Below, one piece after another: positions 1 through 50,855 of a stretch of DNA of 64,000 nt (the stretch's first letter is position 1; every line of letters starts with the position of its first letter). Location: assembly GCA_016181305.1 (NCBI GenBank), contig JACOZN010000010.1:66814-130813 (forward strand). The letters run 5' to 3'. The notes beneath the pieces are model-generated. The model made no database searches, was not told the origin of the DNA, and was given only the letters and a program-made list of their open reading frames with translations. This DNA comes from Candidatus Woesearchaeota archaeon. GTDB taxonomy: Archaea > Nanobdellota > Nanobdellia > Woesearchaeales > GW2011-AR4. Made by a program: the position numbers and the translations under genes.

Positions 1-2718
1 GCTTAGGTTTACCAGCTGGGCATTTACATTCTTTGCAGTTATGTAGTTGGGCCTTGGTGCATAGTAAGTAACAACATCCAAGTCACTTTCCGAGAAAATT
101 ATAGGCGGCAGCTCAATTTTGTTATTCAGCTCCCTTTCTTTTCTCCTTGAAGTTATTGCCCCTTTCCATTTCCCGGTAAGCTCCTCCCTGCCAAGATTTG
201 CATTGCTGAACAAGGCATCAGCATCCAGCATGGCAAGCTCCTGCCTTGTAAAGCCCATTTCCTCTCCGGCAAGCGCTATAAGCTCGAGCGCGTCGCTCAG
301 GTTTTTTGTGAACTGGAATTTTGAGAGCTCTCTTGCCTCCAAAGCTGATTTTGTGAATTCAAGCAGCTGCATTGCATCAAATTTCAGGCCTTCCTGCTTC
401 AGGATTTTTGTAATTCTCTCATAAGCATCATTGTCTACTATAAAAGAATCTGAATGATCTTCATGCAAATCAAAGCTTAGGGTTTTCAATAGCCCGGGGT
501 TTGACTCGTACCTTGGGCTTGTAATGTCGTAAGAGCCAGGCCTTAAGTGGTAGTATTTCTTTACGAAGTCGTCATGATTCATCGCGCCTGAGCCAAGCAG
601 CCTGAAGTCCCTGCTCATTTCCTTGGCGACAGTGCTTATGGAGTTCATGAAATTGTCATAGAAGACAGAGCCTATTATGCTTTTGCGCACAAGGCTTTTC
701 AATATTATTTTGCCGACAAATGCCAGCCTTGCCAGCCTTGAAAACTCAACTGTGCCCTTTTTCCTGCAGTCGCCAAGCAGGAATTTTGCATTGCCAAGCA
801 TGGCTTCAACTGAATTGCCATGGGCTGAATTTTTCCTTATCCTTTCCCTGTTTGATTCCATTTCCTTGAGGCGCTTCAAATCCTCCCGGATTGATTCTTT
901 GGAATGCACCACAAGGCTGTTGGTTAGCTTTATCAGTGCTTGCTTAAGCTCTTCAATATCCTCTCTTGCAAAGCCTGATTTTGAAAGCTCCTCTGACCTT
1001 TCGCCAAACGCCATGTCATAGCATGTAAACAAAACCTCAAACTCCACCTTGTCCTGCATATCCGGATTTTTCTCGAGCTTGTCGAGATAAAAGTCAACGA
1101 GCTTCTCGCGCAGCTTCTGCGACAATGCAGCAGGCACGAATGAGTTAAAAGTGTTCCTAACGTCGATATAAGGCTTGTTGCCGAGCAAAACAACAAGCTT
1201 TGCCGGGTTTACATTATAATATCCCTGCGATGTCCTTGCCTCGTGCCATGCGCTGCCTGTTATGAGATAGTCATAAAGCGAATAGTCAAGATAATTCGGG
1301 TTGTCGCCTATTATTTCAGCAGGATTCCAGTCCGGCATGTCGGCAAGGATTGTCCTTTTCCCGGCAAGATGGGGCTTTCTGGCTGAAAGCTCGGCGAACC
1401 TAGCCTTTAGCAAGTCAATCCTGCTTTTGACTTCAGCATCGTCAGTCTCGTATTTGTTGCTTGTTGTCAATGGCCTTACCTGAAAGATTATCACTTCGTT
1501 TTTGTTGTTTACTGCAAACTCTATGTCAAGCCCTATATTCGGGGCTATGCCTTCTATCTCTTTTACAGCTGCCAGCAGGTTTTGCATGCTGCCAGGCAGC
1601 GAGCTTATTTCAGCAAACCTTGATATTTTCATTGTATTGCTCTCGACGCCTTTTGTGACTGTATCTGATTTTCCGGTTGAGCTGTCATAATTGACTACAT
1701 AATAAGGAGAATTTTTTTCCAAGGATCTTGTAAGTATCACGCCGCTCATTACAATATTCTCTGTCTGCTGCTGAATAAGGACTTGGTTGAATGAATTCTC
1801 GGATGACTTGTGCTTGTACGAGCTTATTACTTTCTTTACAGCAGCCTCGATCTCCTTTGAATCTGCTGAGCCAACATTAAGCTCTGTTGCAAAATAGCCT
1901 GCCATTGAGCTGTCAAGAGTATCTTCGTTGACAGCAGAGCTCCTGACTGCGATTTTGAAAGGCTGGAATTCCTCTTTTACTCTTTTGAGCAGTTCGTCTT
2001 TTTTGTTCTTCCAGTCTGAGACAGAAAACACATATGATTTTTCAATCCTTGATTTTTTAAGCAACGGCTTGAGCGCAGTCAATGTGTCTGCTTTTGTCGA
2101 GATTATAACCTTGTTGCCTTTTTGGTACTCCTTGTCAAGCTTGACTTCCCCCTTTATCAATGACTCAAAGTGGATAACATCCTTCAGCTTGTCCTTGCTT
2201 TCTATAAGCTCTGTTATGATTTTATATGTTGAAAGCCTTCCATAATATGGATGTTGTATGACTTTGCCGCCTATTTGGCTTATGTATTCAGAGCCGTGCA
2301 CATAGCTTAAGTCAGAGCCGTGGACAAGTGTTATTTCTGCATCAGGGAACTCCTCGTGTATCTTCTTGAGGTTCTCTGTTGGGTCTCTTGAGTCCTGCAC
2401 CATAACCCTGTCAACGCAGTTGAGGCTTGAAATTATGGATTTTCTTTCCTGAAGATTGGCAATCGGCTTTGCCCTGTATTCCTCCACAGCCTTGTCAGTC
2501 AGCACACCAACTATATTATAGTCAGAAATAGACTTGGCAAACTGGATTGAATGCAGATGCCCGTAATGAAACAAATCTGCTGCAACTCCGCTGTATGCTA
2601 TTCTCTTTATAGATGCTCTTTTTACCTCTACTATATCGCCTTCCCTGATGCTTGAGCCTGTAGGAATTGTAATGCACAGCTGGTTATTGGATTTGTTTTT
2701 CCATACTATCTTTTTCAT
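1..2718 (-). CDS. Partial fusion protein (C-terminus lies beyond the left edge): HxGH cytidylyltransferase-like domain + PEP/pyruvate-binding (PPDK_N / PEP-synthase-type ATP-grasp) domain
   Basis: Absent from the ORF track because it runs off the window. Hand translation from ATG 2718-2716 stays open for 906 codons down to base 1 (MKKIVWKNKSNNQLCITIPTG...). 'IAYSGVAADLFHYGHLHSIQFAK' is an HxGH nucleotidyltransferase motif. 'VRSSAVNEDTLDSSMAGYFATELNV' is the RSS..ED...AG signature of PPDK/PEP-synthase N-terminal domains. Confidence 0.75.
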   Translation of the reverse strand, partial: MKKIVWKNKSNNQLCITIPTGSSIREGDIVEVKRASIKRIAYSGVAADLFHYGHLHSIQFAKSISDYNIVGVLTDKAVEEYRAKPIANLQERKSIISSLNCVDRVMVQDSRDPTENLKKIHEEFPDAEITLVHGSDLSYVHGSEYISQIGGKVIQHPYYGRLSTYKIITELIESKDKLKDVIHFESLIKGEVKLDKEYQKGNKVIISTKADTLTALKPLLKKSRIEKSYVFSVSDWKNKKDELLKRVKEEFQPFKIAVRSSAVNEDTLDSSMAGYFATELNVGSADSKEIEAAVKKVISSYKHKSSENSFNQVLIQQQTENIVMSGVILTRSLEKNSPYYVVNYDSSTGKSDTVTKGVESNTMKISRFAEISSLPGSMQNLLAAVKEIEGIAPNIGLDIEFAVNNKNEVIIFQVRPLTTSNKYETDDAEVKSRIDLLKARFAELSARKPHLAGKRTILADMPDWNPAEIIGDNPNYLDYSLYDYLITGSAWHEARTSQGYYNVNPAKLVVLLGNKPYIDVRNTFNSFVPAALSQKLREKLVDFYLDKLEKNPDMQDKVEFEVLFTCYDMAFGERSEELSKSGFAREDIEELKQALIKLTNSLVVHSKESIREDLKRLKEMESNRERIRKNSAHGNSVEAMLGNAKFLLGDCRKKGTVEFSRLARLAFVGKIILKSLVRKSIIGSVFYDNFMNSISTVAKEMSRDFRLLGSGAMNHDDFVKKYYHLRPGSYDITSPRYESNPGLLKTLSFDLHEDHSDSFIVDNDAYERITKILKQEGLKFDAMQLLEFTKSALEARELSKFQFTKNLSDALELIALAGEEMGFTRQELAMLDADALFSNANLGREELTGKWKGAITSRRKERELNNKIELPPIIFSESDLDVVTYYAPRPNYITAKNVNAQLVNLS

Positions 2719-2721
2719 ATT

Positions 2722-2731
2722 TCACTAGTGA
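2722..2731. promoter_or_regulatory. Perfect 10-bp palindrome TCACTAGTGA between the TATA box and the ATG of the 1..2718 gene (candidate operator/initiator region)
   Basis: Read directly from the sequence. A related ACTAGTGAATATG leader recurs at 24924-24936. Confidence 0.35.
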
Positions 2732-2743
2732 GACTAGTAAAAC

Positions 2744-2758
2744 TATTTAAAGATTACT
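2744..2758 (-). promoter_or_regulatory. BRE/TATA promoter element (minus-strand AGTAATCTTTAAATA)
   Basis: The TTTAAATA core ends 26 nt upstream of ATG 2718. The identical 15-mer recurs at 22362-22376. Confidence 0.5.
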
Positions 2759-2819
2759 ATTTATGATGTTATTTAATATATAGGTTAAAATATAGATGTT
2801 TAAGAATAGAATAGTTATG

Positions 2820-4109
2820 TTAAATTAAACCTTTATTTTTCAAGCTATTATAAACAATCCCAGCCACAACTTTGCTGCCATAGTTGGAGTAGTGCCCGCC
2901 GTACTTGTTGTCATCAGAGTAGATGCCATTCAGGTCCTTGCGGTTAATCAAGTTCTGTGTAAGGTCAATCACATTCAATTTTTTGCCTGCACTTTCAATG
3001 AAATCACCATAATACGGCTTTTTTCTTTTCCTGTTGAAAAGCAGGTCATCCTTCTGCGGCATCAGTAGGAAAACAGGAACGAATTTGTTTTTCCTGCCGT
3101 AATTTGAAAATTCCTCGAGCAGTTTTTCAAACAGCTTTACAGCGTATTTGTTTTTTTGGTAAAGCCTGCACCTCAGCTTCAGGTTAACCAACATAATGAC
3201 TTTCATCGGCGCTGGATAAGGCTGGAGCTTGCCTTCTTTCCTGAACAATTTGTCCCATAAAACCAAAAATATAAGCGGGATGTTCCTTAAGGGGCTGCCC
3301 AGAATCGATACAAAATACGGGAATCTTATCATCTCTTTCCTGAACTTGTTCTCGTAGAAGTAATCGTGCTTCCTTATCCGGGGCAGGTATTTTTTGTAAA
3401 CAAGAAATTTTTCCTCGCTGTCTATGAAATTCTTGACTAATTTCAGCTTTCCGTTTTTCAGGATAAACCTCGGCTTGAACCCGAATATGTTTCCAAATTC
3501 ATTGTAGTGCTTCCACATGTCCATTATCCTGACGATTGTCGAGGGGACAACAGCCATTATCACTATTTTTGTCCTGTTTCTTGGATATTCCCTTTTCAGC
3601 CTCAAAAATGCCTGATCAATGCCGTAATTGCCGACTCCAAAATTCAGTACATTGGTTTTTGTAAGCTCTGAAAGATGCCACTGGCATGTCTCGTTGTCAT
3701 TAACCTGCCTGCCGAATATGAAGGAATCGCCATAAAAGGATATTTTCTTTGGGAGCTTTTCATGCCCGGGGTTGCTTCTTGAGCCGTTTTTGCCAATATG
3801 GTATTTTGTTATCCCGAACTTGCCGATTTCATCTTTTTCAGTATTGGGCTTTCTTGCCCAGCCAATCTCAGGATCATAGCCGTGGCTTATGAACTTTTTG
3901 AGCCCCTCCCTGCTGAATTCAGGATGCTCGTCTTCGGGAGTTATAAGCCACTGGAAGCTTTTCTTCAGGCTCTTAATCAGGAAATACGACAGGATTTCCA
4001 GAACTAAAAGCGCTATGATATAATAGGCAAAAAGCCTGTAATATTTTATGAAAAGAAATATGCCTGCAAAAACAAGGACAGTGCATGCAATAAGCCTTTT
4101 TGTTTCCAT
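2820..4109 (-). CDS. Membrane-anchored SGNH/GDSL-type hydrolase-like protein (possible glycan O-acyl esterase/transferase)
   Basis: N-terminal hydrophobic helices (LIACTVLVFAGIFLFI, YYIIALLVLEILSYFLI). 'ISFYGDSFIFG' is GDS block I, 'NFGVGNYG' is block II, and C-terminal 'DDNKYGGHYS' is the D..H block. ATG verified at 4109-4107. Confidence 0.6.
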   Translation of the reverse strand: METKRLIACTVLVFAGIFLFIKYYRLFAYYIIALLVLEILSYFLIKSLKKSFQWLITPEDEHPEFSREGLKKFISHGYDPEIGWARKPNTEKDEIGKFGITKYHIGKNGSRSNPGHEKLPKKISFYGDSFIFGRQVNDNETCQWHLSELTKTNVLNFGVGNYGIDQAFLRLKREYPRNRTKIVIMAVVPSTIVRIMDMWKHYNEFGNIFGFKPRFILKNGKLKLVKNFIDSEEKFLVYKKYLPRIRKHDYFYENKFRKEMIRFPYFVSILGSPLRNIPLIFLVLWDKLFRKEGKLQPYPAPMKVIMLVNLKLRCRLYQKNKYAVKLFEKLLEEFSNYGRKNKFVPVFLLMPQKDDLLFNRKRKKPYYGDFIESAGKKLNVIDLTQNLINRKDLNGIYSDDNKYGGHYSNYGSKVVAGIVYNSLKNKGLI

Positions 4110-4126
4110 TTGCTGAAATTACCGAT

Positions 4127-5296
4127 TTATCTGTTTTTGTTTAAAAAATCAATTATGAACCTGGCGCCTGCGGCTGAAGAGCTGCCAAGGTTGAAAACGT
4201 GCTTTTTTCTTGCTTTTATAATTTCTTTCCTGTACTTAGCTTTTTCTTTTATCAGCTTTGCGGCTATTGAATCAATCTTGCCAACATTATCCGGATGCAA
4301 AACAAACCCAATTTTGTTCCTTATTTTGATGTCGATAGGCTCTGTGCTGAATTTTCTGTATTCGGGGTTGTTTATTTTTATGGGAGTGTCTATGAACAGC
4401 ACAGGCCTTTCTGTCCCGAAAGCATACTCATATACAACCCCTGACCAGTCGCTTATCATTATATCGGAGCTGTAAAAATTTTCAAGCGACGAGACATTCT
4501 CTTCTGCCATAAAATTTTTGAAATTCCTGAATTCATCATAAAGCGCGTCCAGAAATTCGGGATATTTTTTCCTTGTCATAGGGTGAGGCCTCAGAATCAC
4601 TTCATAGTTTGACTCGAGCAGTTTTCTTACCAGTTTGCTGCCGCAGATGTCCAGCATGCTTGTCCTTTCCCCCCACGGGCCCCAGCCAGGCGCAACAAGT
4701 ATCCTGGCCTTGAACTTTGTTTTCCTTTTTTTGCCTGCGCTTTTCCATTTTTTGTAGTCCCTATGTATTTTGTCCAGCCTGTAATAGCCGAATTTTACGA
4801 TTTTTCTTTCAGGCAGCTTGTAAAGCTCCTCCTCATTCCTCAGCTCCCTGATATGATGGGGGCCGACTGCAAACATTATGTCATAGTAAAAAAGCCCTCC
4901 ATGCCTTATTACATGGAAATAGCTGCCGATGTTGTGGAACAAATAAGCATGGCTGGCTCCCCTGACGGACTTTTTGATATGGAACTGGTTCAAGTCAGGC
5001 ATTGTCATCAGCACAAGCTTTGAGTCCAGAAGCAGCATGAAAAATCCAAGCAAATGCCTTATGTAGAATGCATTAACGTTCTTTCTTTTGCTGTGCAGCA
5101 TAGGGTCATTGCACTCTGATGTGACATAGCACAGCTTCATGTTGTGCCTGCCTGCAAGCTCGCCTATAATCCCCTCAAAAAAGGTGTAGTATGAGCTGTC
5201 TTCGGAATAAACCACAACATCCCTCTGGGCTTTGTCTAATTTGAAGAACCTGCGAAATTCCCTGAATTCCTTTGCAAACAGAGTCCATTCTTTCAT
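4127..5296 (-). CDS. CDP-glycerol/CDP-polyol phosphotransferase family protein (TagB/TagF-like)
   Basis: 'YEVILRPHPMT' and 'SDIMISDWSGVVYEYAFGTERPVLFID' resemble the conserved C-terminal core of teichoic-acid glycerophosphotransferases. The gene lies 17 nt from the downstream gene. Confidence 0.6.
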   Translation of the reverse strand: MKEWTLFAKEFREFRRFFKLDKAQRDVVVYSEDSSYYTFFEGIIGELAGRHNMKLCYVTSECNDPMLHSKRKNVNAFYIRHLLGFFMLLLDSKLVLMTMPDLNQFHIKKSVRGASHAYLFHNIGSYFHVIRHGGLFYYDIMFAVGPHHIRELRNEEELYKLPERKIVKFGYYRLDKIHRDYKKWKSAGKKRKTKFKARILVAPGWGPWGERTSMLDICGSKLVRKLLESNYEVILRPHPMTRKKYPEFLDALYDEFRNFKNFMAEENVSSLENFYSSDIMISDWSGVVYEYAFGTERPVLFIDTPIKINNPEYRKFSTEPIDIKIRNKIGFVLHPDNVGKIDSIAAKLIKEKAKYRKEIIKARKKHVFNLGSSSAAGARFIIDFLNKNR

Positions 5297-5309
5297 AATA
5301 ATTGGTTAA

Positions 5310-7193
5310 TTAATTTTGTTCGATTTTCTCGAGCTCTTTCTCCAAAAATCTTCTTTTTGTTATATTTACGTTATAAAGATTTAGTTTCTCCTGCGGGTCA
5401 GCATTGATATTAAACAGGGAGGAGTACATCCTGTTTTTCGGATCTTCCGGCTTTATCAGGAGAAGCTTCCACCCATCGTCAAAAATTGCCTGCTGCACGC
5501 TCTCATTCAGTTTTGGCCTTCCATAAAGCTCAGAAATCACGTAACTGCCGACAGGGCTTTTGTTAGTCTTAATCAGGGGGAGCAGGCTGGCGCTATCCAC
5601 ATTCCCAGGCGATTCGGTATTTGCCACGTCAAGCACTGTTGAAAATATGTCAATTGTGCTGACAGTCTCCTTTATCCTTTTTGGAGGCAGTTTGGCAGGG
5701 TAATAAATCAGCAAAGGAACGTGCACGTTCTCGTAGTATAAAGTATGGTGCATAAAGCCGCCGTGGTCGTAGAACTCCTCCCCGTGGTCTGCCGTGATTA
5801 TTATCATTGTCTTGTCCTTCAAGCCCAGCTGGTCAAGCTTGCCAATCAGCTTTCCTATGCTGCTGTCAACAGAGTAGATTTCAGCATCATAAAGCGCTTT
5901 TGCCATCTCTATTGTTGAGTTCGGAATCGGCAGGTACCTTTCAATTGCGTAAGAAGGCTTTGGCCTGTAAACAGTTGCAAGCTGTATGTCTTTGTTTGTT
6001 TTCCAGACGTCATAAAGTGTTATCCTTTCATTGGAGAACATGCTCCTGTATTGCAGGCCGCGGTTGTAGGGATGATGGGGCTCGATGTAATGAACCCACA
6101 AAAAGAATTTGTTGTTTGAATTCTTCTCCAGAAACCTGAAAGCATCTCGGTTTATTTCCTCGGCTTTCCTCTCGCCGTCAGTCCTGAAAATGAAAGTGCG
6201 CATTCCGGGCATATAGTCAAGCAGCCTCTTCATGCTGAACTTATTGTAAGTCTGCGTGTATTCAAAAAAATCAAGCCTGTCCCTGTATTCCATAAAGCCC
6301 TGTCCAGCCCCGTACTTTGACTTGATGTAAACAGCGCTAATCATGCCTGTTGTCACATAGCCCTTATCTTTCAGCAGTTCGCTGATAAGAAGCTCTTTTT
6401 CATTAATCACCGGATTCCTTAAGGTAGTATTATGGCGGTACTGGTATCTGCCGGTTAAAACAGACGCCATTGAAGTTTGGGTGTCCGGGCCGGGAGCTAT
6501 GGCATTGTCAAATACAACAGAATGTTCCGCCAATTTGTTGAGATTTGGCGTGGTGTTCAGTTGATAGCCATAAAGAGAAAGGTGGTCAGCCCTTGTCGCG
6601 TCTATTGTTATCAGGATTATATTTGAGTAGTCTTTAAGCCTGCTGTCTGATTTGTAACCCGGGCTGTAATGCAGCATGTACACGTCAATAAAAAGCGACA
6701 CTGCAGCAAATACAAACATTGCAAAGATATAGTTTCCCAAAAACTTTTTTACTCTTGGCTTTTTCAGTTGCAGGAGAATCTGTGACAAAACATTCTTTCC
6801 TTTTAGGAAAATGGCAAAGCAGAATATCGCTGAAACTGCAACAACAAGCAGGCTGAGGCTGAACGATGCAGGCTCTATTATGCTCAAAGGGCTCAGCAGG
6901 AAGTTGTTTACAAGCACCAGGCCATAGAACATCAAAATAAACGATATTGTGCCAGCAACATAAGCATTCCTGGCTTGTTCCTGCTTTAGGGGTTTTCCGA
7001 ACAACCAAACAAAAAATCCAAAAGCCAGAAAGAACAGCACAGACGCAGCAATCGATATAAACAATGCCTGGTAAAGCTCGAACCATTCGAAGCTCCATGA
7101 GAATATTCTGGCCAGTACATCAACTGTGCCGATTAAAGAGCCGGCCAGCAATCCTGCTGCGGCTGCGAGCTTTAAATGCCTTGTCAATTTCAT
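5310..7193 (-). CDS. Polytopic membrane protein with alkaline-phosphatase/sulfatase-fold domain (LtaS / phosphoglycerol- or phosphoethanolamine-transferase-like)
   Basis: About 5-6 N-terminal hydrophobic segments precede 'IILITIDATRADHLSLYGY...PDTQTSMASVLTGRY' and 'IIITADHGEEFYDHGG'. There is no C/S-x-P-x-R sulfatase motif, and Thr occupies the nucleophile position. Confidence 0.65.
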   Translation of the reverse strand: MKLTRHLKLAAAAGLLAGSLIGTVDVLARIFSWSFEWFELYQALFISIAASVLFFLAFGFFVWLFGKPLKQEQARNAYVAGTISFILMFYGLVLVNNFLLSPLSIIEPASFSLSLLVVAVSAIFCFAIFLKGKNVLSQILLQLKKPRVKKFLGNYIFAMFVFAAVSLFIDVYMLHYSPGYKSDSRLKDYSNIILITIDATRADHLSLYGYQLNTTPNLNKLAEHSVVFDNAIAPGPDTQTSMASVLTGRYQYRHNTTLRNPVINEKELLISELLKDKGYVTTGMISAVYIKSKYGAGQGFMEYRDRLDFFEYTQTYNKFSMKRLLDYMPGMRTFIFRTDGERKAEEINRDAFRFLEKNSNNKFFLWVHYIEPHHPYNRGLQYRSMFSNERITLYDVWKTNKDIQLATVYRPKPSYAIERYLPIPNSTIEMAKALYDAEIYSVDSSIGKLIGKLDQLGLKDKTMIIITADHGEEFYDHGGFMHHTLYYENVHVPLLIYYPAKLPPKRIKETVSTIDIFSTVLDVANTESPGNVDSASLLPLIKTNKSPVGSYVISELYGRPKLNESVQQAIFDDGWKLLLIKPEDPKNRMYSSLFNINADPQEKLNLYNVNITKRRFLEKELEKIEQN

Positions 7194-7295
7194 TAAACAT
7201 TACCTTTTGCAGGCTTAATATGAGTCGATAAAGCTCATAGCAAAAGACAGGCATTTTAAAATGTTTTGCTTTGATTTGCAGGACATAATTTGCAC

Positions 7296-8147
7296 TTACC
7301 TTTCCAGAAGTATGTTGGCATACCTGCTTCCCTGGCATAATCTAATCAGCGAGGAGCTGCCAATCGGCTCTGTCCGCTTCTTTTTCTCGTTTATCAGCCT
7401 GATTTTGAATCCATGGCTTTCCAGCCTGCTTAAGAACTCCTGAGGGGAATCGCCGCATTTCATCAAGCCCTTTGGATAAAACTCGCACACCAGCCTTATG
7501 ACTTTACTTGACTCCAGCAATTTGGCCATGCCCTTCACTGCCAGAAACTCGGCGCCTTCAGCGTCAATCTTGACAAAATCTGGCTTTGCCTTGTTTCTGA
7601 CGAAATTGTCTATCGTTATTGAATCCACTTCTATGGGCTTGCTTCCCGCGCCAAGATCTGACATGCTGTGGTCTCCCTTATAGGCTTCTGACACAAAAAA
7701 TTTCACTTTTCCGGATTTGTCAGAAACGGCTTTTTTGACTGCTCTGACGTTTTTGCAGCTGTTTGCTTTTATGTTTTTTACGAGCAGCCTGTAGTTCTCA
7801 GGCTCCGGCTCGAATGCGTAAACCACCCCATTTTTGCCAACCAAATCTGAGAAAATTAAAGTGTAATAGCCTATGTTTGCCCCTATATCATAAACAACCA
7901 TTCCCTTTCTGACAATCCTGCCCAGCAGCTTTGCCTCAAAAGCCTCAAGCGCAGAAAACTTCCACAGCAGCAGCGCGAAAATCCTGTCAAGCGTGCCTGC
8001 ATACATTTTGTGCATGCCGACTTTTACCATGATGTCTTTTCCAGGGCTAAAATGCCTGTTGACAAAACTGGCTATTTTTTTAGCCATGCCACTGGAAGCA
8101 AGGCTCACAATAAATCCCGAAGCGCCATTCAGAACATTGAAGCCCAT
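7296..8147 (-). CDS. FkbM-family SAM-dependent methyltransferase
   Basis: 'VVYDIGANIGYYTLIFS', 'VYAFEPEPENY' and 'PDFVKIDAEGAEF' match the FkbM (Methyltransf_21) pattern. Confidence 0.7.
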   Translation of the reverse strand: MGFNVLNGASGFIVSLASSGMAKKIASFVNRHFSPGKDIMVKVGMHKMYAGTLDRIFALLLWKFSALEAFEAKLLGRIVRKGMVVYDIGANIGYYTLIFSDLVGKNGVVYAFEPEPENYRLLVKNIKANSCKNVRAVKKAVSDKSGKVKFFVSEAYKGDHSMSDLGAGSKPIEVDSITIDNFVRNKAKPDFVKIDAEGAEFLAVKGMAKLLESSKVIRLVCEFYPKGLMKCGDSPQEFLSRLESHGFKIRLINEKKKRTEPIGSSSLIRLCQGSRYANILLER

Positions 8148-8170
8148 TTTGGTTTTTAGAATCCAGCATT

Positions 8171-8180
8171 GTATATAAAA
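8171..8180 (-). promoter_or_regulatory. TATA box (minus-strand TTTTATATAC) for the FkbM-like gene
   Basis: The proximal edge is 24 nt upstream of ATG 8147. Confidence 0.45.
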
Positions 8181-8256
8181 TTATTGAAACAATGGCAAAA
8201 CGCATTTGCATTTCCCTGAATCCTGCGTTTTTCACTACAAATTCAAAAGGGCAAAG

Positions 8257-8266
8257 TTTTAAAATA
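8257..8266 (+). promoter_or_regulatory. TATA-like box TTTTAAAATA for the 8295 gene
   Basis: It ends 29 nt upstream of ATG 8295, within the divergent intergenic region. Confidence 0.35.
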
Positions 8267-8294
8267 GGCGTTTTTTATAGGGTATTTTTGACAG

Positions 8295-9773
8295 ATGAAA
8301 ACAAAGCCGTTGGTTTGGGGGCATAAAAGCAGCACTTGGCTTCTGATTATTTTAGCTTTTGCCCTTGCCCTGAGACTCGTGTTCTTTACAGGCACTGACG
8401 CTTCTGACCCGCTGGCTTATACAAAATACGCAGACATGCTTGCGAAGGGCGAGCCGATAAATGTTGAGAGGGGCGATGCATTCAGGATAGGGCTGCTGCT
8501 GCCTGTTTCTGTGCTGTACAGGATATTTGGATTTAATGAGTTTTCATCAAATGTGCTTGTTATCCTGGCTTCATTGGCTTCAATAGCCCTGATATACAAG
8601 TTTGGGGCAATGCTGTTTAACGAGAAAGCCGGCCTGCTCAGCGCATTTTTGCTGAGCTTTTTCCCATTTGACGTGCTGTATTCTACAAGGCTTATGACTG
8701 AGCTGCCTTCGGCATTTTTTGTTTCATTGGCTGTTTATTTGTTTCTGAAATCTGAAAAAACCGCAAATAAAAGAAAATCATATGCTTACTGCCTTTTCTC
8801 GGGCTTGGCTGTTGGAATGGCGTACCTGATAAAGGAGCTGTCTGTATTAATCATCCTATTTTTTATCGCCTACACTATCTATTATAAAAAAATAAGAGCC
8901 AGATACTGGCTGATTCCATTGGGATTTGCAATAATATTTTTTGTAGAGGCGCTTTATTTTTTAAAGACGGCAGGCAACATGCTCTTTAGGTTTGACACTA
9001 TAACAACGGCAACATACTCCATAGTGCTGGAAAATTATGGCAGGGGCAGCCTTCCATTTTCCCTTTTCCACTTCTTTTACATTGCGTTCACAGACAGCAG
9101 CTTGGGGTTGTTTTACCCGTTTATATTCGTGGCAATATTTTTCTGCATAGCCAGAAAAAAGAAAGATACCTACAACCTGTTGTTATGGTTCATACCTTTG
9201 TTTTTGTATATCAGCTTCGGCTCAATCAGCTTTACAAAATACATACTTTTCCCGGTTACAACACGGCTGTTTTCGATAGTCACCTTTCCGGGAATTTTGC
9301 TGCTGGCATATTTACTTTCGCAGGAAGATAAGCTAATCAAAAGAACGCTGATGCCAATCATCTTAATACTTCTTTTCGTGACATCAATAGGCTATATACA
9401 TGTCTCGCGCCAGAAATCCTTAATCGACAGTGAAAAGGCAGCGTACGAATTCGTAAAAGGGCTTGACAACAGCATATACACTGACGAAAGGACTTTTAAT
9501 ATTTTTGATTATTTATCAGGCTACGATCTGCCGGACAACATCAGGAAGTTCAGCCACTACGAGCCGCTGAACCCGCAGAACACAAGCGCTGTGGAGCTCG
9601 GCAAAATAACAGATTCTTATGTTGTAGTAAACCGCAAGCTGGTAAATTTCTATTTGTCTTACAAGAAAGGCGCCAAGTTTCCCGCTGAAATTTTTAACGT
9701 GCCAAAAGAATGGATTTTAAAAAAAAGCATTGGAAAAGGGGAAAACAGCATTGAGGTATATTACATCCCTTAA
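8295..9773 (+). CDS. GT-C fold integral-membrane glycosyltransferase (GT39 / ArnT / PMT_2-like)
   Basis: About 10 or more hydrophobic segments with an N-terminal-loop acidic motif region ('FFTGTDASDPLAY') and 'FPFDVLYSTRLMTELPSAFF'. This is the typical ArnT/PMT-like architecture with a C-terminal soluble domain. Confidence 0.6.
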   Translation: MKTKPLVWGHKSSTWLLIILAFALALRLVFFTGTDASDPLAYTKYADMLAKGEPINVERGDAFRIGLLLPVSVLYRIFGFNEFSSNVLVILASLASIALIYKFGAMLFNEKAGLLSAFLLSFFPFDVLYSTRLMTELPSAFFVSLAVYLFLKSEKTANKRKSYAYCLFSGLAVGMAYLIKELSVLIILFFIAYTIYYKKIRARYWLIPLGFAIIFFVEALYFLKTAGNMLFRFDTITTATYSIVLENYGRGSLPFSLFHFFYIAFTDSSLGLFYPFIFVAIFFCIARKKKDTYNLLLWFIPLFLYISFGSISFTKYILFPVTTRLFSIVTFPGILLLAYLLSQEDKLIKRTLMPIILILLFVTSIGYIHVSRQKSLIDSEKAAYEFVKGLDNSIYTDERTFNIFDYLSGYDLPDNIRKFSHYEPLNPQNTSAVELGKITDSYVVVNRKLVNFYLSYKKGAKFPAEIFNVPKEWILKKSIGKGENSIEVYYIP

Positions 9774-9805
9774 TTATTCCATGATTGGCTGGATTTTATC
9801 TTCTT

Positions 9806-10570
9806 CTATTCTTGCAGCTTCTTTTCCCTGTAATACACCACAATCAGGTTGTCAATCGGCTTGTTGTGCCATATGGCTTCCAGGCCGCATTGCCCGCCCA
9901 GCGCTATCATATCCCTTAGGCGGAAATAGTAAAGGTGCTCTGTCGGCATTATGTGCTTCCAAGCCCTTCCCTCTTTCCTGTGGTTGCTGCATTCAAAATC
10001 ATGGGTGCCTATGGCTATCACTCCGCCTGCAGCCAGCCTTTTCCGCATCTCAATTAAAAGCCTGTCAGGACTTACCAAATGCTCTATTGTGTTGTAGCAT
10101 GTTATTGCATCAAACTTTTCAAGCGGATAATTTTCCAGCGTGCTTCTTATAAGCTTTACATTGTATCTTTTCCTTCCCTCTTCAAGGGTTTTCTCGCTTA
10201 AGTCAATTCCAACTGCATCAAATCCTGCATCCTTGGCGGCCTTCACAAGAAAGCCCATTGAGCACCCTACATCAAGAAATTTTCCTTTTGCCTTGAATTT
10301 TGACAAAAATTTGATTCTTTCCCTTGATATCTCCATAAACTCATTAAGCCTTTCGTGTATGTCCTTCTCGCCGACTGACACCTGATAGCTTTCCCAGTAA
10401 TCTCCTGCATACACATCCTGGAAATGCCCGTCCTCAGGCATGGGAAAAACAAATGCAAAGCCGCAGCCGCTGCACTTCACAATATTTTGCCTTTCAAAAT
10501 CATACACAATCTTATGCTCTTTTGAGCCGCACAGAAGGCAGCTGCCTTTGCCATATTTTGGCTTTTCCAT
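9806..10570 (-). CDS. Class I SAM-dependent methyltransferase with N-terminal Cys4 zinc ribbon
   Basis: 'CLLCGSKEHK...CSGCGFAF' is a zinc ribbon and 'FLDVGCSMGFLVKAAKDAGFDAVGIDLS' is SAM motif I. The ORF track start is 10591. I prefer ATG 10570, which gives a TAATG junction with the upstream stop. Confidence 0.7.
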   Translation of the reverse strand: MEKPKYGKGSCLLCGSKEHKIVYDFERQNIVKCSGCGFAFVFPMPEDGHFQDVYAGDYWESYQVSVGEKDIHERLNEFMEISRERIKFLSKFKAKGKFLDVGCSMGFLVKAAKDAGFDAVGIDLSEKTLEEGRKRYNVKLIRSTLENYPLEKFDAITCYNTIEHLVSPDRLLIEMRKRLAAGGVIAIGTHDFECSNHRKEGRAWKHIMPTEHLYYFRLRDMIALGGQCGLEAIWHNKPIDNLIVVYYREKKLQE

Positions 10571-11520
10571 TAGTGGTTCATCCCGTACCATTCCAATGTT
10601 TTCTTTATGCCTTCCCTCAGCTTTGTCTGCGGCTCCCAGTTCAGCTTTTCCTTCATTTTGTCCACGACAAGTATTTTTTTCATGGCTCCGTCAGGCTTTT
10701 CCGGCTGCAGGACAAACTCACCTTCCCATCCGACAGTTTCTTTTATTATATTAGCCAACTCAATCACCGAGATGCCTTTTGTCACTCCAATGTTCATTAT
10801 CTCATTGCGCTCAAACTTGTCAAGATTTTCAATGGCTTTCAGTATTCCCTCGGCAGCATCCTTCACATAAATCCATTCCCTTACAGGCTTGCCGGTGCCC
10901 CATATCTCAACAATTTTTTTGTCCTGTTTTTTTGCATCGACAATTTTTGTGATGAAAGCCCCCAGGGCATGCGACTTTACAATTTCAAAATGGTCATTTG
11001 GGCCGTACATGTTCGGAAACACCAGATGTATGGGCCTGAATTCCGGGTTTTTCTGGCAGTAGGCAAAGCAGTCTCCCCAAAACATCTTTCTTGGAAGCCC
11101 GTAAGTAAGGACGCTGTCATGTATGGGGCCGTCCCAGAACTTTGACTCCTCGTATTCCTCCAGATGCCCTGGGTAAGTGCAGTTCGGCATTATGTTAACC
11201 AGATTATTGACTTGAGATTCGCTGCAAGCCCTGACAACACTCAGTCCAATGCTGACATTGTCCTCGAATACTTCCACAGGATGCAAAGCGTTGTATGCTA
11301 TTCCGCCTACATGCGCGGCGCAGTGAACCACTAATTCGGGCTTGAGTTTATCGACAAATTCCTTGAATTGGCTGTAGTTCCGGATATCAATGCCTTCCCT
11401 CCTGCTGCATGAATGCACGTCAAACCCCCTGTTTCTGAGCAATTCCACTACATTGCTGCCCAAAAATCCGGTTCCTCCTGTTACAAGCACTTTCATTTTA
11501 GCCATTTTTGTTTTTTTCAT
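10570..11520 (-). CDS. NAD(P)-dependent sugar epimerase/reductase, GDP-L-fucose synthase (Fcl/GER1)-like
   Basis: 'KVLVTGGTGFLGSNV', 'HCAAHVGGIAYN', 'FPNMYGPNDHF' and 'IWGTGKPVREWIYVKD' follow the Fcl-like pattern. In-frame alternative ATGs at 11505 and 11496 are possible starts. Confidence 0.65.
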   Translation of the reverse strand: MKKTKMAKMKVLVTGGTGFLGSNVVELLRNRGFDVHSCSRREGIDIRNYSQFKEFVDKLKPELVVHCAAHVGGIAYNALHPVEVFEDNVSIGLSVVRACSESQVNNLVNIMPNCTYPGHLEEYEESKFWDGPIHDSVLTYGLPRKMFWGDCFAYCQKNPEFRPIHLVFPNMYGPNDHFEIVKSHALGAFITKIVDAKKQDKKIVEIWGTGKPVREWIYVKDAAEGILKAIENLDKFERNEIMNIGVTKGISVIELANIIKETVGWEGEFVLQPEKPDGAMKKILVVDKMKEKLNWEPQTKLREGIKKTLEWYGMNH

Positions 11521-12607
11521 AAAATTCCCTGATTGAGCCGCAGATGTATTTTATCTGCTCGTCTTTAAGGCTGTAAAAGACAGGCAGTGACAATCCTTCG
11601 TCATAAGCCTTGTTCGAAACTGGAAACTCATCTTCTTTGTAGCCAAGGTGCGCAAGGTAGGGCTGCCTGTGCAATGGGTAAAAAAGGCGCCTTGTCTGAA
11701 TGCCTTTGCCCTCAAGGAAAGGTATCAATTCCGCTAATTTTTCCGCCCATATGTTCACCCTGAAAGGGACAAAATTTGAAAAATCGTTGCCTTTCAAGAA
11801 GCTTACATTTTTAACATCTCGAAGCAGCCTGCGGTAAAGCTCATAATGCTCCAGCTTTACCTTTTCAATCTTTTTGAATTTCCTGATCTGGGCTACGCCG
11901 ACAGCGCACTGCAAATCTGTCATCCTGAAGTTCATTCCCAGGCCCGGGTGCACAAATGTGCCGCTGTGCGGCCTTCCCTGGTTTCGCAGCAGCTTGAGCC
12001 TGCTGTAAAGCTCTTCATTGTTCGTGAGCACAACAGCGCCCTCTCCGGTTGTTATTGTCTTGTCTGCAAAAAAAGATATTATTCCCAGGTCGCCTATTGC
12101 GCCGACATGATTTCCCCTGCAATAAACTCCAAAGCCCTGCGCCGCATCCTCGAGCACCTTTATGCCGCGCCTGGCTGCAATTTCCATAATCTTTCCCATG
12201 TCGCAGCTTCTGCCGTAAATATGCACGGGCATTATGGCCTTGGTTTTTGGCGTTATTGCCTGCTCTATTTTACCTGTGTCTATGTTTAAGTCATCATCAA
12301 GAACATCGACAAATTTTGGAACAGCTCCCCTGAATATCACAGGCGATGCCGAGGCGCTGAAGGTGAAGTCCGGCAAGATTACCTCATCGCCTTCCCTGAT
12401 GCCCAATGCCGCCAAAGAAAGGTACAATGCCAGTGTGCCGTTGCTGGCCAAAACAGCGTACCTTGCTTTTGTGAATTTTTTTATATCCTCCAGAAACTCC
12501 TCGGAAAAAGGGCCTTCTGTTATCCACCTGGTTTCTATGACTTTTTTCAGGTTGTTCAGCTCGTCTTCGTCAAAATACGGCTCCAATTGGGGAACTTTGT
12601 ATTTCAT
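11498..12607 (-). CDS. DegT/DnrJ/EryC1/StrS-family PLP-dependent sugar aminotransferase
   Basis: 'LASNGTLALYLSLAALGIREGDEVILPDFTF', 'IMPVHIYG' and 'SFFADKTITTGEGAVV' (catalytic Lys region). Confidence 0.8.
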   Translation of the reverse strand: MKYKVPQLEPYFDEDELNNLKKVIETRWITEGPFSEEFLEDIKKFTKARYAVLASNGTLALYLSLAALGIREGDEVILPDFTFSASASPVIFRGAVPKFVDVLDDDLNIDTGKIEQAITPKTKAIMPVHIYGRSCDMGKIMEIAARRGIKVLEDAAQGFGVYCRGNHVGAIGDLGIISFFADKTITTGEGAVVLTNNEELYSRLKLLRNQGRPHSGTFVHPGLGMNFRMTDLQCAVGVAQIRKFKKIEKVKLEHYELYRRLLRDVKNVSFLKGNDFSNFVPFRVNIWAEKLAELIPFLEGKGIQTRRLFYPLHRQPYLAHLGYKEDEFPVSNKAYDEGLSLPVFYSLKDEQIKYICGSIREFYEKNKNG

Positions 12608-12611
12608 GCAG

Positions 12612-12616
12612 TCACC
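12612..12616 (-). promoter_or_regulatory. Shine-Dalgarno GGTGA for the DegT gene, embedding the TGA stop of the upstream gene
   Basis: The minus strand reads AAGGTGACTGCATG, with 4 nt of spacing between GGTGA and ATG 12607. Confidence 0.4.
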
Positions 12617-13379
12617 TTAGCTTACAGACAAAGTTTATTTTCCAGTCATTTTCGGCAATTTTTTTGCTTGGCTCCTTGTAAGGGAATGCCTGCACGACTT
12701 TCAGGCCTGAAGCATCAAGAGCACTCGCAATCTCGTTGTATGTGAAAAAGTTGATTACAATGCTGGGATTGGCGCGCTCTGCAAGCCTGCCGTTCTTATA
12801 AGCTTTTATGTCATACTTCAGCGTGCAAACCTGCCTTAAAAAATCAGTCTTTGGGATTGCTTTCCTCTCAATTTTTAACCCTTTCCATTCGATTGTCTTT
12901 GTTTTTATTTCCGGGGGATGCAGAAAAACAGCGCTGCCGTTCCATGCATCGAAAATGAATATTGAGCCATTTTTCATGTTTTTAGCCACTGAACTGAAAA
13001 AGCCCACAAGATTCTTGTACGGGCCAAGCGCATTCACGACATCAAACAAGGATATGATTACATCAAACGGCTCATTTACATCTTTAAAGCTTTTGCACTC
13101 AAAATGCAGCCCTGTGGACTTGCCTCTTGCAATGCCAATCATGTGCCTTGACACATCAAATCCATATGCCCTGTAGCCCATCCTGGAAAATGCAATGGTG
13201 TGGTTTCCGGTGCCGCAGCCCACATCAGCCAGCTTAAGGCTTTTTTTCCCTGAATTTTCTTTCTTTAAATATTTCCTTATGACAGAATCTATTACTCTGG
13301 CTTCTCCATCATAGTCCTTGCCCTTGTTTATCAAATCGTAATACTTCGAAAATGTCCCGCTGTAATTGGTGTTTTTCAT
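12612..13379 (-). CDS. Class I SAM-dependent methyltransferase
   Basis: 'LADVGCGTGNHTIAFSRMGYRAYGFDVS' is motif I/II. 'FDVIISLFDVVNAL' and 'MKNGSIFIFD' are also present. Confidence 0.7.
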   Translation of the reverse strand: MKNTNYSGTFSKYYDLINKGKDYDGEARVIDSVIRKYLKKENSGKKSLKLADVGCGTGNHTIAFSRMGYRAYGFDVSRHMIGIARGKSTGLHFECKSFKDVNEPFDVIISLFDVVNALGPYKNLVGFFSSVAKNMKNGSIFIFDAWNGSAVFLHPPEIKTKTIEWKGLKIERKAIPKTDFLRQVCTLKYDIKAYKNGRLAERANPSIVINFFTYNEIASALDASGLKVVQAFPYKEPSKKIAENDWKINFVCKLR

Positions 13380-13381
13380 GC

Positions 13382-14797
13382 CTATACCCTGAATTTGAAC
13401 AGTTTCATTGCCTTCAATGATATTTTAAGCAGCATCCAGCCGTGCTTGATGGCATTGATTTTTGTTTTACCATACTTCCTCGGCAGGTATGTTATCGGGA
13501 CCTCAACCAGCTTAAGGTTGTTCTTCATGCACCAGAATATCATCTCAAAATCGCCAAAAGGATCCAAGTCCCTGAAAAAGTTTTTTTGCTTCTCAAACTG
13601 CCTGTACCTTTCCCTGGACATGGCTTTCACTCCTGAAAGCGTGTCTGTAAACCTCTGGCCAACTATCCATGTGAATATTTTTGCGAACATGCCGTTTCCG
13701 AAATAATTAAGCTTTGGCATGGCTTTTTTGTTCATCCTGTAAACAAGCCTTGATCCCTGTATGTACTCGCCGTAGCCCTTTTTATAGATGTCCCAGACAT
13801 ATGATATTTCTTCAGGAGGCGTTGTGAGATCTGCTTCCAGAAGTATGATAAAGTCGCCTTTTGCATACCCAAAGCCCGTGTAAATTGCGTCTTTTGGGCC
13901 GATGCCCTTCTGCTTCAGCAGCTTTATGTCCTTTTTCGGGTATTTTTTAATCATCTCCCTTATCTTGCCGTAAGTATTGTCCTTTGAGCCGCCTTCCACA
14001 AAAATCAGCTCTGTATGCCCTCCCATGCTTGGCGTTCTTTTTACAAGCTCCTCTATGTTGCCCTCTTCGTCCTTGCAGGTCAGGACAACAGACACATTTT
14101 TTGCATCTTTAGGGGCTTCATTCAGCCTGAAAATAAGGAATTGGTTGATGCACAGGCCGTTAATTAAAGGCAGCTTTGCAAGCACTTTGTTTAAGAATGC
14201 CGACAGAATCGGGATATATTTGGGCATCAGCCCGAATTTGTCCCTTTTTATCAGCTGGTAGCCGTTGATGTTTATGATATTCTCTATGTCCTTGACGGCA
14301 AGCTCGTTTATCTTGACTTCAGGCATCTTGAGCCTCAGCTTCTCTGAGAGCCTGAGCAAAGGAGACCAAATCCGGTTGTACTCGGAGATTATTATCCTTG
14401 TGTCATGATTGCAGGATTTTTTTATGTTCTGCAGCAGTTTCTGCATGTTGGTTATGCTTAAAATGCCGGATATTATTATATAGTCAAATTTCTCTTTTGT
14501 GCTGAAATCATCATAGGCTGAGCATACAAACTTGATGCCGGGATAGCTTTTTCTTGCAGCCTTGATTGTTTCATCGCTGAAATCAACTCCGACTCCGTAA
14601 GACGGATTGAGGCTGCCTATTATGTAGCCTATGCCGCAGCCAAGCTCAAGAACCCTGCTATTCTCGGGCACCACGAAAGAATAGTATTTCAGCATCTGCC
14701 CGTGATAATATTTGTTTTTCCTTATCCACTGGTGCCTTTCTTTCGCGTAAGAGTCGTAATGCTCCCGTATATTCCTTAAAAGATTCCTGTCTATCAT
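13382..14797 (-). CDS. Two-domain protein: N-terminal SAM methyltransferase + C-terminal GT2 (dolichyl-phosphate sugar synthase-like) glycosyltransferase
   Basis: N-terminal 'VLELGCGIGYIIGSL' and 'FDYIIISGIL'. C-terminal 'VSVVLTCKDEEGNIEELV', 'ELIFVEGGSKDNT' and 'GDFIILLEADLTTPPEE' (GT-A DxD-like region). Confidence 0.7.
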   Translation of the reverse strand: MIDRNLLRNIREHYDSYAKERHQWIRKNKYYHGQMLKYYSFVVPENSRVLELGCGIGYIIGSLNPSYGVGVDFSDETIKAARKSYPGIKFVCSAYDDFSTKEKFDYIIISGILSITNMQKLLQNIKKSCNHDTRIIISEYNRIWSPLLRLSEKLRLKMPEVKINELAVKDIENIININGYQLIKRDKFGLMPKYIPILSAFLNKVLAKLPLINGLCINQFLIFRLNEAPKDAKNVSVVLTCKDEEGNIEELVKRTPSMGGHTELIFVEGGSKDNTYGKIREMIKKYPKKDIKLLKQKGIGPKDAIYTGFGYAKGDFIILLEADLTTPPEEISYVWDIYKKGYGEYIQGSRLVYRMNKKAMPKLNYFGNGMFAKIFTWIVGQRFTDTLSGVKAMSRERYRQFEKQKNFFRDLDPFGDFEMIFWCMKNNLKLVEVPITYLPRKYGKTKINAIKHGWMLLKISLKAMKLFKFRV

Positions 14798-14828
14798 AAG
14801 AGTTTTTGCCCCCTAAAAAAGCCAAAAT

Positions 14829-15767: not shown

Positions 15768-15790
15768 AGCTCTTGGTATTGAATGCGCTC

Positions 15791-50850: not shown

Positions 50851-50855
50851 CCAAG

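Follow-up and report, generated by a model that had tools for sequence, protein, structure and literature searches.

Phosphoramidate (P–N) modification of glycans has, to our knowledge, been worked out biochemically only in Campylobacter jejuni, in which it bears on phage recognition, serum resistance and the design of vaccines. In this O-methyl phosphoramidate (MeOPN) pathway Cj1416 is the phosphoglutamine cytidylyltransferase, Cj1417 the γ-glutamyl-CDP-amidate hydrolase (CDP, cytidine diphosphate) and Cj1415 the CDP-amidate 3'-kinase; the fold of Cj1416 is presumably LicC/NTP_transf_3 (GT-A-like), in line with a structural match in the Borg preprint considered below. The glutamine kinase of the pathway is Cj1418 (PMC10971088), and cj1415 is located downstream of cj1416 (PMC3907429); together, Cj1415–Cj1418 yield 3'-phospho-CDP-phosphoramidate from glutamine, ATP and CTP (PMC11800397). 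The present report concerns a gene of a Candidatus Woesearchaeota archaeon, at positions 1–2718 (− strand) of a 64,000-nucleotide stretch of contig JACOZN010000010.1 (hereafter the window), whose product joins an HxGH cytidylyltransferase-like domain to a putative glutamine-kinase-type module.

The window locus shares with the Campylobacter pathway a PPDK/RPH-type kinase with a swivel histidine, the order kinase → C26 hydrolase → LicC-type gene, a hydrolase matched best, among curated models, by that of Cj1417, and a setting in a surface-glycan island with methyltransferases. It differs in its archaeal host, in the HxGH domain at the N-terminus of the kinase, and in having TagF-like, SGNH-like and sulfatase-like neighbours in place of Cj1421/1422-type transferases; in addition, no Cj1415-type 3'-kinase was found in the window or its leftward extension. 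The fusion itself resembles Fom1 (5x3d), in which an HxGH cytidylyltransferase (CyTase), the closest solved relative of the window N-terminal domain, is likewise fused to the first enzyme of a pathway to an unusual phosphorus bond. In Fom1, however, the partner is a phosphoenolpyruvate (PEP) mutase, an enzyme not found in the window, the substrate is 2-hydroxyethylphosphonate (HEP; 5x3d is the HEP-CMP complex), and the CyTase acts several steps after its partner in fosfomycin biosynthesis. The kinase module has the ATP-grasp, substrate and swivel histidine domains of the rifampin phosphotransferase RPH-Lm (5hv1, 5fbs) and, like it, lacks a PEP/pyruvate TIM barrel, but identity is 13–14% and the window gene sits in glycan biosynthesis rather than antibiotic resistance.

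The C. jejuni HS:1 locus combines MeOPN genes (HS1.01–07) with a TagD-type gene (HS1.11) and a TagF-like gene (HS1.09), and its product is a glycerol-phosphate polymer decorated with methyl phosphoramidate (PMC11924219). The window locus likewise appears to bring a phosphoramidate pathway, an HxGH cytidylyltransferase and a TagF-like phosphotransferase together at one glycan locus, although HS1.11 is a free-standing, bona fide TagD with 45% identity to the Bacillus subtilis enzyme GCT. Genes 308–311 of the Cobalt Borg form an archaeal-associated cluster proposed, by structure prediction, for CDP-phosphoramidate (bioRxiv 10.1101/2024.11.05.622173). A kinase, a hydrolase and a cytidylyltransferase lie together there as in the window locus, but in the Borg description the kinase has a gene of its own and the second cytidylyltransferase is fused to a PEP mutase. 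This preprint, with its unfused kinase, was the only mention outside Campylobacter found in the literature; the HxGH–kinase fusion, the variant with two nucleotidyltransferases and the breadth of the family were not found described in any paper, and a search on the family name 'PRK05849' returned nothing.

On balance, and with moderate confidence, we favour the joint reading that the window gene serves a CDP-phosphoramidate (MeOPN-type) surface-glycan pathway and that its HxGH domain is an extra enzyme, not equivalent to Cj1416.

The HxGH–kinase gene

The window holds a single open frame of 906 codons on its − strand (1–2718), opened by an ATG at 2716–2718 and cut at its 3' end by the left window edge. 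The two other frames of the same strand contain 76 and 47 stops, and 906 open codons would be expected by chance, at the window base composition, with p ~2e-25. Exact-sequence look-up of the complete 429-aa neighbouring protein returned three contigs from independent sequencing runs, L091 (Logan SRR12113430), L092 and L093, which show no mismatch across the 906 window-encoded residues. L091 is 100% identical to window positions 1–14000 and reaches 3.2 kb further left; in it, the complete gene occupies 11392–14379 and encodes 995 aa, the last 89 codons lying outside the window. The layout is the same in a related contig, L001, which aligns colinearly with the window at 89.5% nucleotide identity along 11 kb. 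Homologues from other assemblies include more than 100 90%-identity clusters of 950–1000 aa with the architecture PF01467, PF01326 and PF00391. Since three assemblies are identical and more than 100 clusters share this architecture with a conserved linker, the HxGH–kinase junction is neither an assembly chimera nor a frameshift. Among the loci listed, the nearest relatives are metagenome-assembled genomes (MAGs) labelled Methanosarcinales (65% identity) and Woesearchaeota (56%). An Rfam scan of the window found no RNA genes.

Pfam, the NCBIfam model NF004508 and L091 together define the gene as bifunctional. The HxGH cytidylyltransferase-like domain (aa 38–176, 2191–2607) is delimited by Pfam, phmmer against the PDB, Foldseek and conservation; it contains the motif 'FHYGH' (aa 50–54, nt 2557–2571) and matches PF01467 (CTP_transf_like) at aa 48–137 (E 2e-10, 41.4 bits, cutoff 21). 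An interdomain linker (aa 177–200, 2119–2190), continuous and conserved in alignment blocks of the homologues, leads into the PPDK_N-type ATP-grasp domain of the kinase module (~aa 201–440, 1399–2118), which is supported by Pfam (PF01326, E 6.8e-14, 52.3 bits, cutoff 27), NF004508, Foldseek matches to RPH and further ATP-grasp enzymes, and invariant columns, and which carries RSSAVNEDTLDSSMAGYF at aa 259–276 (nt 1891–1944). The central, mostly helical domain (~aa 441–880, 79–1398) was delimited from the model secondary structure and Foldseek comparison with 5hv1 and 5fbs, and its position matches that of the substrate-binding domain of rifampin phosphotransferase. The phosphohistidine swivel domain starts at ~aa 881 (1–78), as judged from the C-termini of L091 and a homologue (P0001) with PF00391; in L091 the C-terminus shows the PF00391 domain with the motif KYGGVASHMSIRCAEFGIPAAIG (GGVASHMSIR), and the catalytic His951 lies outside the window.

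The protein begins with an extension of ~37 aa (2608–2718), recognized from the alignment and the model secondary structure, with short β-strands and the motif 'QLCITIP…GDIVEV'. About half of the homologues have it; P0101, a full-length relative, has an APS-kinase domain in its place. This extension (aa 1–37, QLCITIPTGSSIREGDIVEV) forms a short β-hairpin resembling the swapped-hairpin motif of AbrB/SpoVT and has no Pfam match.

The truncated protein matches NF004508 (PRK05849), an equivalog model currently named 'hypothetical protein', over aa 201–905 with 711.6 bits against a cutoff of 501, the match ending at profile position 703 of 789, ~86 residues short in the window; P0101 scores 854.7 bits. 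Five homologues (P0007, P0040, P0060, P0066 and P0117) bear the IMG label 'glutamine kinase'. Models of PEP synthase give the kinase part at most 32 bits (cutoffs ~600–1060); its Pfam domains are PPDK_N and PEP-utilizers alone, and no PEP/pyruvate-binding TIM barrel was found. The rifamycin phosphotransferase model NF041857 gives 11.8 bits against a cutoff of 999, the resemblance to that enzyme being structural only. In an AlphaFold2 model of a 91%-identical full-length homologue (pLDDT 84.8, pTM 0.74), the best Foldseek match in the PDB is rifampin phosphotransferase 5hv1 (E 8e-21), spanning the ATP-grasp, central and swivel domains; a search of the PDB found no structure of a glutamine kinase. 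For the N-terminal domain, Foldseek gave the Fom1 CyTase 5x3d (TM score 0.83, 31% identity) and TagD 2b7l (0.83, 24%), with further matches to HldC, CCT and ECT, and phmmer against the PDB gave Fom1 5x3d (E 6.7e-13) and ECT 3elb (E 7.5e-12). The model for domain II of RfaE/HldE, TIGR02199, gives this domain 62.6 bits, under its cutoff of 181.5. A fold of the Cj1416-type, LicC/NTP_transf_3, was considered for the fused domain and is excluded; the domain belongs to PF01467, an unrelated fold.

In an alignment of 58 fusions, H51, G53, R92 and S163 of the HxGH domain and RSS259–261, E265 and D266 of the ATP-grasp domain are invariant, S163 lying in a second, ISTT-like motif ('GRLS163TYKII'). H54 and the swivel H951 are nearly invariant, and the swivel histidine is invariant in a second alignment (A2). 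Because the catalytic motifs are so conserved, both modules look catalytically competent.

Much of a preliminary description of the window is borne out by these results. The two motifs that it had picked out in the 906-codon frame were both located on the − strand of 1–2718. Of the Pfam families that it expected, PF01467 and PF01326 are in the window, and PF00391, which it thought possible, is in L091, where leftward extension shows directly the swivel domain that it had placed off-window. Its PPDK/rifampicin-phosphotransferase-like build was recovered with Foldseek, and TagD, which it had proposed for comparison, is also matched by the N-terminal domain. The chimeric or frameshifted junction that it named as a possible refutation was not found, given the three identical assemblies and the more than 100 clusters of fused homologues.

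The triad and its distribution

Two genes on L091 follow the kinase directly. A Peptidase_C26/GATase gene (229 aa, 14376–15065) overlaps the kinase stop codon with its start (ATGA), and after it comes an NTP_transferase/NTP_transf_3 gene (263 aa, 15073–15864). The top NCBIfam match of the C26 protein is NF045546, the γ-glutamyl-CDP-amidate hydrolase (Cj1417) model, with 99.7 bits over the full length, below the cutoff of 250; the C26 proteins of bacterial loci with a Campylobacter-like four-gene order score 89–99 bits against the same model. The NTP_transf_3 protein is LicC-like, its best PDB matches being LicC (1jyk) and the phosphonate cytidylyltransferase PntC (6pd1). The order kinase → C26 → NTP_transf_3 thus parallels Cj1418→Cj1417→Cj1416, and the use of the Campylobacter MeOPN pathway as the reference system in the preliminary description holds good.

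An exhaustive search with the kinase module recovered 3,186 representative clusters at E ≤ 1e-3, of which 1,344 pass E ≤ 1e-30. A genome scan, with one genome per GTDB species, found the kinase in at least 581 species, and the best 80 loci of these were examined; in all, 87 non-redundant loci were annotated with hidden Markov models (HMMs) built from the components of the module, with 10-kb flanks, and the triad recurs across this set. The species include Woesearchaeota, Pacearchaeota, Altiarchaeales, Micrarchaeia and MAGs labelled Methanosarcinales and, among bacteria, many Lachnospiraceae, Bacteroidales, Legionella septentrionalis, Marinobacter, Cohnella, bacteria of the candidate phyla radiation (CPR) and others. 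Campylobacter was not among the best 80 of the at least 581 matching loci; of ten stand-alone representatives looked up by cluster, one could be assigned an organism, Ekhidna.

Pfam scans of representatives distinguish four architectures: stand-alone kinases (~790 aa), HxGH + kinase (~960–1000 aa), NTP_transf_3 + kinase (~1020–1050 aa) and kinase + Peptidase_C26 (~1020 aa). The order [HxGH–kinase]→[C26]→[NTP_transf_3] is present in 20 of 21 HxGH-fusion loci, and the twenty-first is the window, whose L091 extension shows the same order. Bacterial kinases fused to NTP_transf_3 are followed by C26 and have a second, separate NTP_transf_3 gene. Stand-alone kinases frequently follow the Campylobacter arrangement, kinase→C26→NTP_transf_3→APS-kinase-like. 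Kinase + C26 fusions were found at 18 loci, mostly in Lachnospiraceae and other Clostridia.

Two apparent exceptions did not hold. P0114 (757 aa), a close homologue that seems to stand alone, is missing ~45 residues at the start of the kinase module; in L017, where it is encoded, a neighbouring ORF (open reading frame) that overlaps it by 17 nt encodes the HxGH part, and it looks like a split or frameshifted fusion rather than a true stand-alone kinase. L011 and L036 are similar cases. The stand-alone kinase of L010 has a partial gene upstream of it, which was shown not to encode an HxGH protein.

The kinase + C26 loci (among them L024, L029, L031, L032, L035, L037–L041, L043 and L044) form a group of their own, in which no nucleotidyltransferase was detected within 10 kb. 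Six of the 18 have a phage-type integrase no further than 8 kb from the fusion, directly upstream of it in L040. Either a mobile element or a further role for phosphoglutamine could account for these loci.

The kinase family is almost invariably coupled, and sometimes fused, to a γ-glutamyl-type C26 hydrolase, and the gene order is that of Cj1418→Cj1417→Cj1416; L-glutamine is therefore the probable substrate of the kinase, and CDP-phosphoramidate the probable product of the pathway. The preliminary description had left the phosphorylated headgroup as an uncharacterized X; with hydrolase coupling near-ubiquitous, L-glutamine is the probable identity instead. An APS-kinase HMM had no match in the 64-kb window or in the syntenic L001. 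As no Cj1415-type 3'-kinase was found, the donor is probably plain CDP-phosphoramidate. At another locus, L008, NTP_transf_3 is directly followed by a gene (12487–13836) for a 449-aa protein whose P-loop domain is nucleotide-kinase-like (weak Thymidylate_kin match) and which, although no APS kinase, could take over the 3'-kinase step.

Role of the fused HxGH domain

The downstream NTP_transf_3 proteins of all three architectures that contain them are similar to one another (mean pairwise scores of 165–269 bits), whereas the NTP_transf_3 domains fused to kinase N-termini score ~60 bits against the downstream group and 98 bits among themselves. The downstream proteins are, on these comparisons, one orthologous group and the fused NTP_transf_3 domains a distinct paralogue. 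Since this orthology holds across architectures and the fused domains stand apart, the sequences identify the conserved Cj1416-type enzyme as the product of a separate downstream gene and the fused HxGH domain as an additional nucleotidyltransferase. By the same comparisons, the kinase N-terminus has independently gained a second nucleotidyltransferase from two unrelated folds. The preliminary description had taken the HxGH domain for the counterpart of Cj1416, an identification contradicted by the retention of a Cj1416-type NTP_transf_3 gene downstream in all 20 HxGH-fusion loci that extend past the kinase.

The gene content of the loci differs with architecture. Kinases of the PRK05541 type are present in 0 of 21 HxGH-fused and two of 18 NTP_transf_3-fused loci, as against 11 of 17 complete stand-alone triads; two bacterial stand-alone loci tested with NCBIfam exceed the cutoff of 127 (L090, 150.7; L070, 167.3). 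Any APS-kinase-like gene occurs in 6/39 fused loci of both classes versus 12/17 complete stand-alone triads (Fisher p = 1e-4), and a TagF-like or CDP-OH_P_transf gene in 19/39 versus 3/27 stand-alone loci (Fisher p = 0.0015), in tests that ignore phylogenetic non-independence and use home-made HMMs and 10-kb flanks. CDP-OH_P_transf-like proteins are near the module, often adjoining it, in 11 of the 21 HxGH-fusion loci; TagF directly adjoins it in only two and is not a conserved feature of the family. Four HxGH-fused loci have a generic APS kinase, accompanied by ATP sulfurylase in two of them (L015 and L045). The APS-kinase domain of P0101 was tried as a Cj1415 equivalent and rejected, being closer to generic APS kinases than to the PRK05541 subfamily; given the ATP sulfurylase of L015 and L045, it may serve sulfation.

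The following mechanism is proposed. The 995-aa bifunctional enzyme would open a CDP-phosphoramidate (MeOPN-type) modification pathway for surface glycan. By homology, its C-terminal ~800 residues would be a glutamine-kinase-type enzyme of the PPDK/rifampin-phosphotransferase class, in which the ATP-grasp domain would bind ATP and His951 of the swivel domain, once pyrophosphorylated or phosphorylated, would hand phosphate to the substrate domain to phosphorylate L-glutamine at its amide nitrogen. Synteny and orthology with the Campylobacter enzymes suggest that the LicC-like NTP_transf_3 protein would convert phosphoglutamine and CTP to CDP-glutamine, and that the C26 amidohydrolase would free glutamate and leave CDP-phosphoramidate. 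The HxGH domain would be an intact second nucleotidyltransferase, separate from the phosphoglutamine cytidylyltransferase of the pathway. Its likeliest role, proposed tentatively, would be to make a separate CDP-activated phospho-alcohol (CDP-glycerol-like) for the neighbouring TagF-like enzyme, or in other genomes a CDP-alcohol phosphotransferase, so that one glycan would receive both groups. The C. jejuni HS:1 locus is a characterized precedent, in which a TagD-type HxGH enzyme and a polymerase of the TagF-like kind work alongside the MeOPN genes.

Several points weigh against this proposal, beginning with the phylogenetic non-independence behind the co-occurrence statistics and the score of the hydrolase below its model cutoff. 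The likeness to Cj1418, Cj1416 and Cj1415 was drawn from family models, folds and gene order, and the activity of family members outside Campylobacter is predicted. The TagD model TIGR01518 gives the N-terminal domain 29.9 bits, far under its cutoff of 165.4, and eight of the 21 HxGH-fusion loci have neither TagF nor CDP-OH_P_transf within 10 kb. In a stand-alone locus, L072, TagF comes straight after the triad with no extra nucleotidyltransferase, an arrangement suggesting that TagF-like enzymes may simply use CDP-phosphoramidate. Finally, the fusion of kinase and HxGH domains classically implies consecutive steps, which would favour channelling.

Channelling is the strongest alternative, although we consider it unlikely. 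Here the HxGH domain would cytidylylate labile phosphoglutamine delivered by the fused kinase, giving CDP-glutamine, and the downstream NTP_transf_3 would have a different or redundant role. The two activities are fused through a conserved linker; other lineages have an NTP_transf_3 domain joined to the kinase at this N-terminal position; P0101 carries an APS-kinase domain, HxGH domain and kinase in one polypeptide, which recalls the logic of PAPS synthase or CoA synthase; and the nearest HxGH relatives, the Fom1 CyTase and ECT, act on small phospho- or phosphono-compounds. Against this, the NTP_transf_3 gene that persists in every extending HxGH-fusion locus (20/20) is orthologous to the sole nucleotidyltransferase of the stand-alone clusters, where it is necessarily the phosphoglutamine enzyme, and two enzymes for one reaction over about 39 lineages would be unparsimonious. 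Fom1 adds a caution, as its fused CyTase shows that such a domain can work several steps after its partner. The sequence 'phosphorylate X, then make CDP-X' of the preliminary description is therefore only partly supported; with a Cj1416-type enzyme separately encoded, it is not the most parsimonious account.

A second alternative accepts the extra nucleotidyltransferase, whether HxGH or the unrelated NTP_transf_3, and would have it act after CDP-phosphoramidate, on a phosphoramidate-bearing intermediate, in replacement of the 3'-phosphorylation by Cj1415. This new step would yield a different activated donor, for example one for forming a phosphoramidate diester with an alcohol instead of a methyl group; transferases of the TagF-like or CDP-alcohol type could then place such diesters, or amidated teichoic-acid-like linkages, on the surface glycans of archaea and bacteria. 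The anticorrelation of N-terminal fusions with PRK05541-like kinases (0/21 and 2/18 versus 11/17) fits such a replacement, and two unrelated folds at one position imply selection for nucleotidyl transfer as such. Exclusion is not strict, however: HxGH and a PRK05541-like kinase occur together in the frameshifted fusions of L011 and L017, and a generic APS kinase is present in P0101 and L013. With neither a chemical precedent nor a candidate product, this alternative is improbable.

It is more doubtful still that the kinase acts on something other than glutamine (glycerol, serine or a sugar), with the HxGH domain making CDP-X for the TagF-like enzyme and the GATase and NTP_transf_3 genes being unrelated glycan genes. 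In its favour, the PDB search found no glutamine kinase structure from which the substrate-determining residues could be read, and the family is large and diverse, with its 1,344 representative clusters at the stricter threshold. Nevertheless, coupling to C26 is almost universal and often translational, the 18 kinase + C26 loci have the two fused, and the gene order is the same as in Campylobacter. An assembly chimera or frameshift joining two genes can be dismissed: in a few MAG loci (L011, L017 and L036) the two parts are adjacent or overlapping ORFs, but these overlap in different frames, as frameshift errors would, and three independent assemblies and more than 100 homologue clusters have the fusion. 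The reading that we retain is thus that of a CDP-phosphoramidate pathway with an extra HxGH nucleotidyltransferase.

Neighbourhood and wider implications

The genes next to the kinase in the window are all on the − strand. A membrane-anchored, SGNH/GDSL-like protein of 429 aa with the motif 'YGDSF' (2820–4109) is a conserved partner of the module in 11 surveyed loci and has 45–59% identity to the neighbours in L002 and L008; nothing significant was found for it in the PDB or Pfam, and its tentative assignment to SGNH is based on the 'GDS' block and a faint GDSL match of the L008 homologue. Next is a TagF-like CDP-glycerol-type phosphotransferase gene (4127–5296; PF04464, E 3.1e-13), whose product is a candidate user of the CDP-activated donor. 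The preliminary description had the kinase beside this gene; the gene is there, but the 429-aa gene lies between the two. It is followed by a 627-aa protein of the sulfatase/alkaline-phosphatase superfamily (5310–7193; PF00884), the N-terminal part of which resembles phosphoethanolamine transferases (weak EptA/CptA-type NCBIfam matches), and by an FkbM-family methyltransferase (7296–8147; PF05050, TIGR01444 113 bits) that might possibly provide an O-methylation step. Further along, a soluble 373-aa sulfatase-like protein (22415–23536, −; custom HMM, 631 bits) has 44% and 38% identity to gene products of L006 and L007, where the genes adjoin the module and lie close to it, respectively. A third gene of the sulfatase/alkaline-phosphatase superfamily is at 23550–24932 (−).

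The island includes a second kinase–nucleotidyltransferase fusion (19656–21245, −), a 529-aa protein with an N-terminal NTP_transf_3/NTP_transferase domain and a C-terminal EcKL (choline/ecdysteroid-kinase-like) domain, reminiscent of LicC plus LicA; it is flanked by GatZ/KbaZ-like (18613–19629) and shikimate-dehydrogenase-like (21443–22276) genes. A 294-aa ORF (29873–30757, +) matches the home-made CDP-OH_P_transf HMM (E 3.5e-12), with no Pfam match at 1e-5. Three consecutive B12-binding radical SAM genes are present at 49306–50859 (−), 50941–52365 (−) and 52499–53902 (+), and two others are found no more than 8 kb from the module in L007. In fosfomycin biosynthesis, Fom1 supplies a B12-radical-SAM methyltransferase; that such genes and a Fom1-like domain both occur in the window may be coincidence.

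Unbiased clustering of the neighbours of the module gave otherwise generic glycan genes only, plus a pair of ~235-aa proteins, sometimes fused (~440 aa), with weak similarity to Formyl_trans_N. This pair, which the window lacks, occurs at 21 loci (for example L006, 14239–15668; L007, 12386–13794; L010, 4152–5477, fused) and is found with the triad in each of the three architectures that include a nucleotidyltransferase. It is a candidate for a missing pathway enzyme or transferase. ATP sulfurylase also recurs beside the module (L006, 16055–18119; L007, 13798–15512; L010, 5474–6568; and L015, L019, L020 and L045), mostly of the Sat type, CysDN-like in L006, and preceded in L007 by a HIT-family protein. 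This suggests combined sulfation and phosphoramidation, or APS-like chemistry.

The gene type itself is common and already bears automated database names, members being labelled 'glutamine kinase', 'cytidyltransferase family protein', 'hypothetical protein' or 'PEP-utilizing enzyme'. The triad of kinase, hydrolase and cytidylyltransferase is far wider than Campylobacter, with the kinase in at least 581 species, among them DPANN as well as other archaea and, on the bacterial side, gut Lachnospiraceae. Loci of the window type go beyond the Campylobacter scheme in having a second intact nucleotidyltransferase, and a 3'-kinase was usually not found nearby. Were the extra domain to replace the 3'-kinase, these loci would represent a second, widespread branch of biological P–N chemistry. 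If the proposed pathway is confirmed, uninformative database names would be corrected, enzymologists would gain a compact bifunctional enzyme, and a testable variant pathway would be defined, extending P–N chemistry to the surfaces of archaeal cells.

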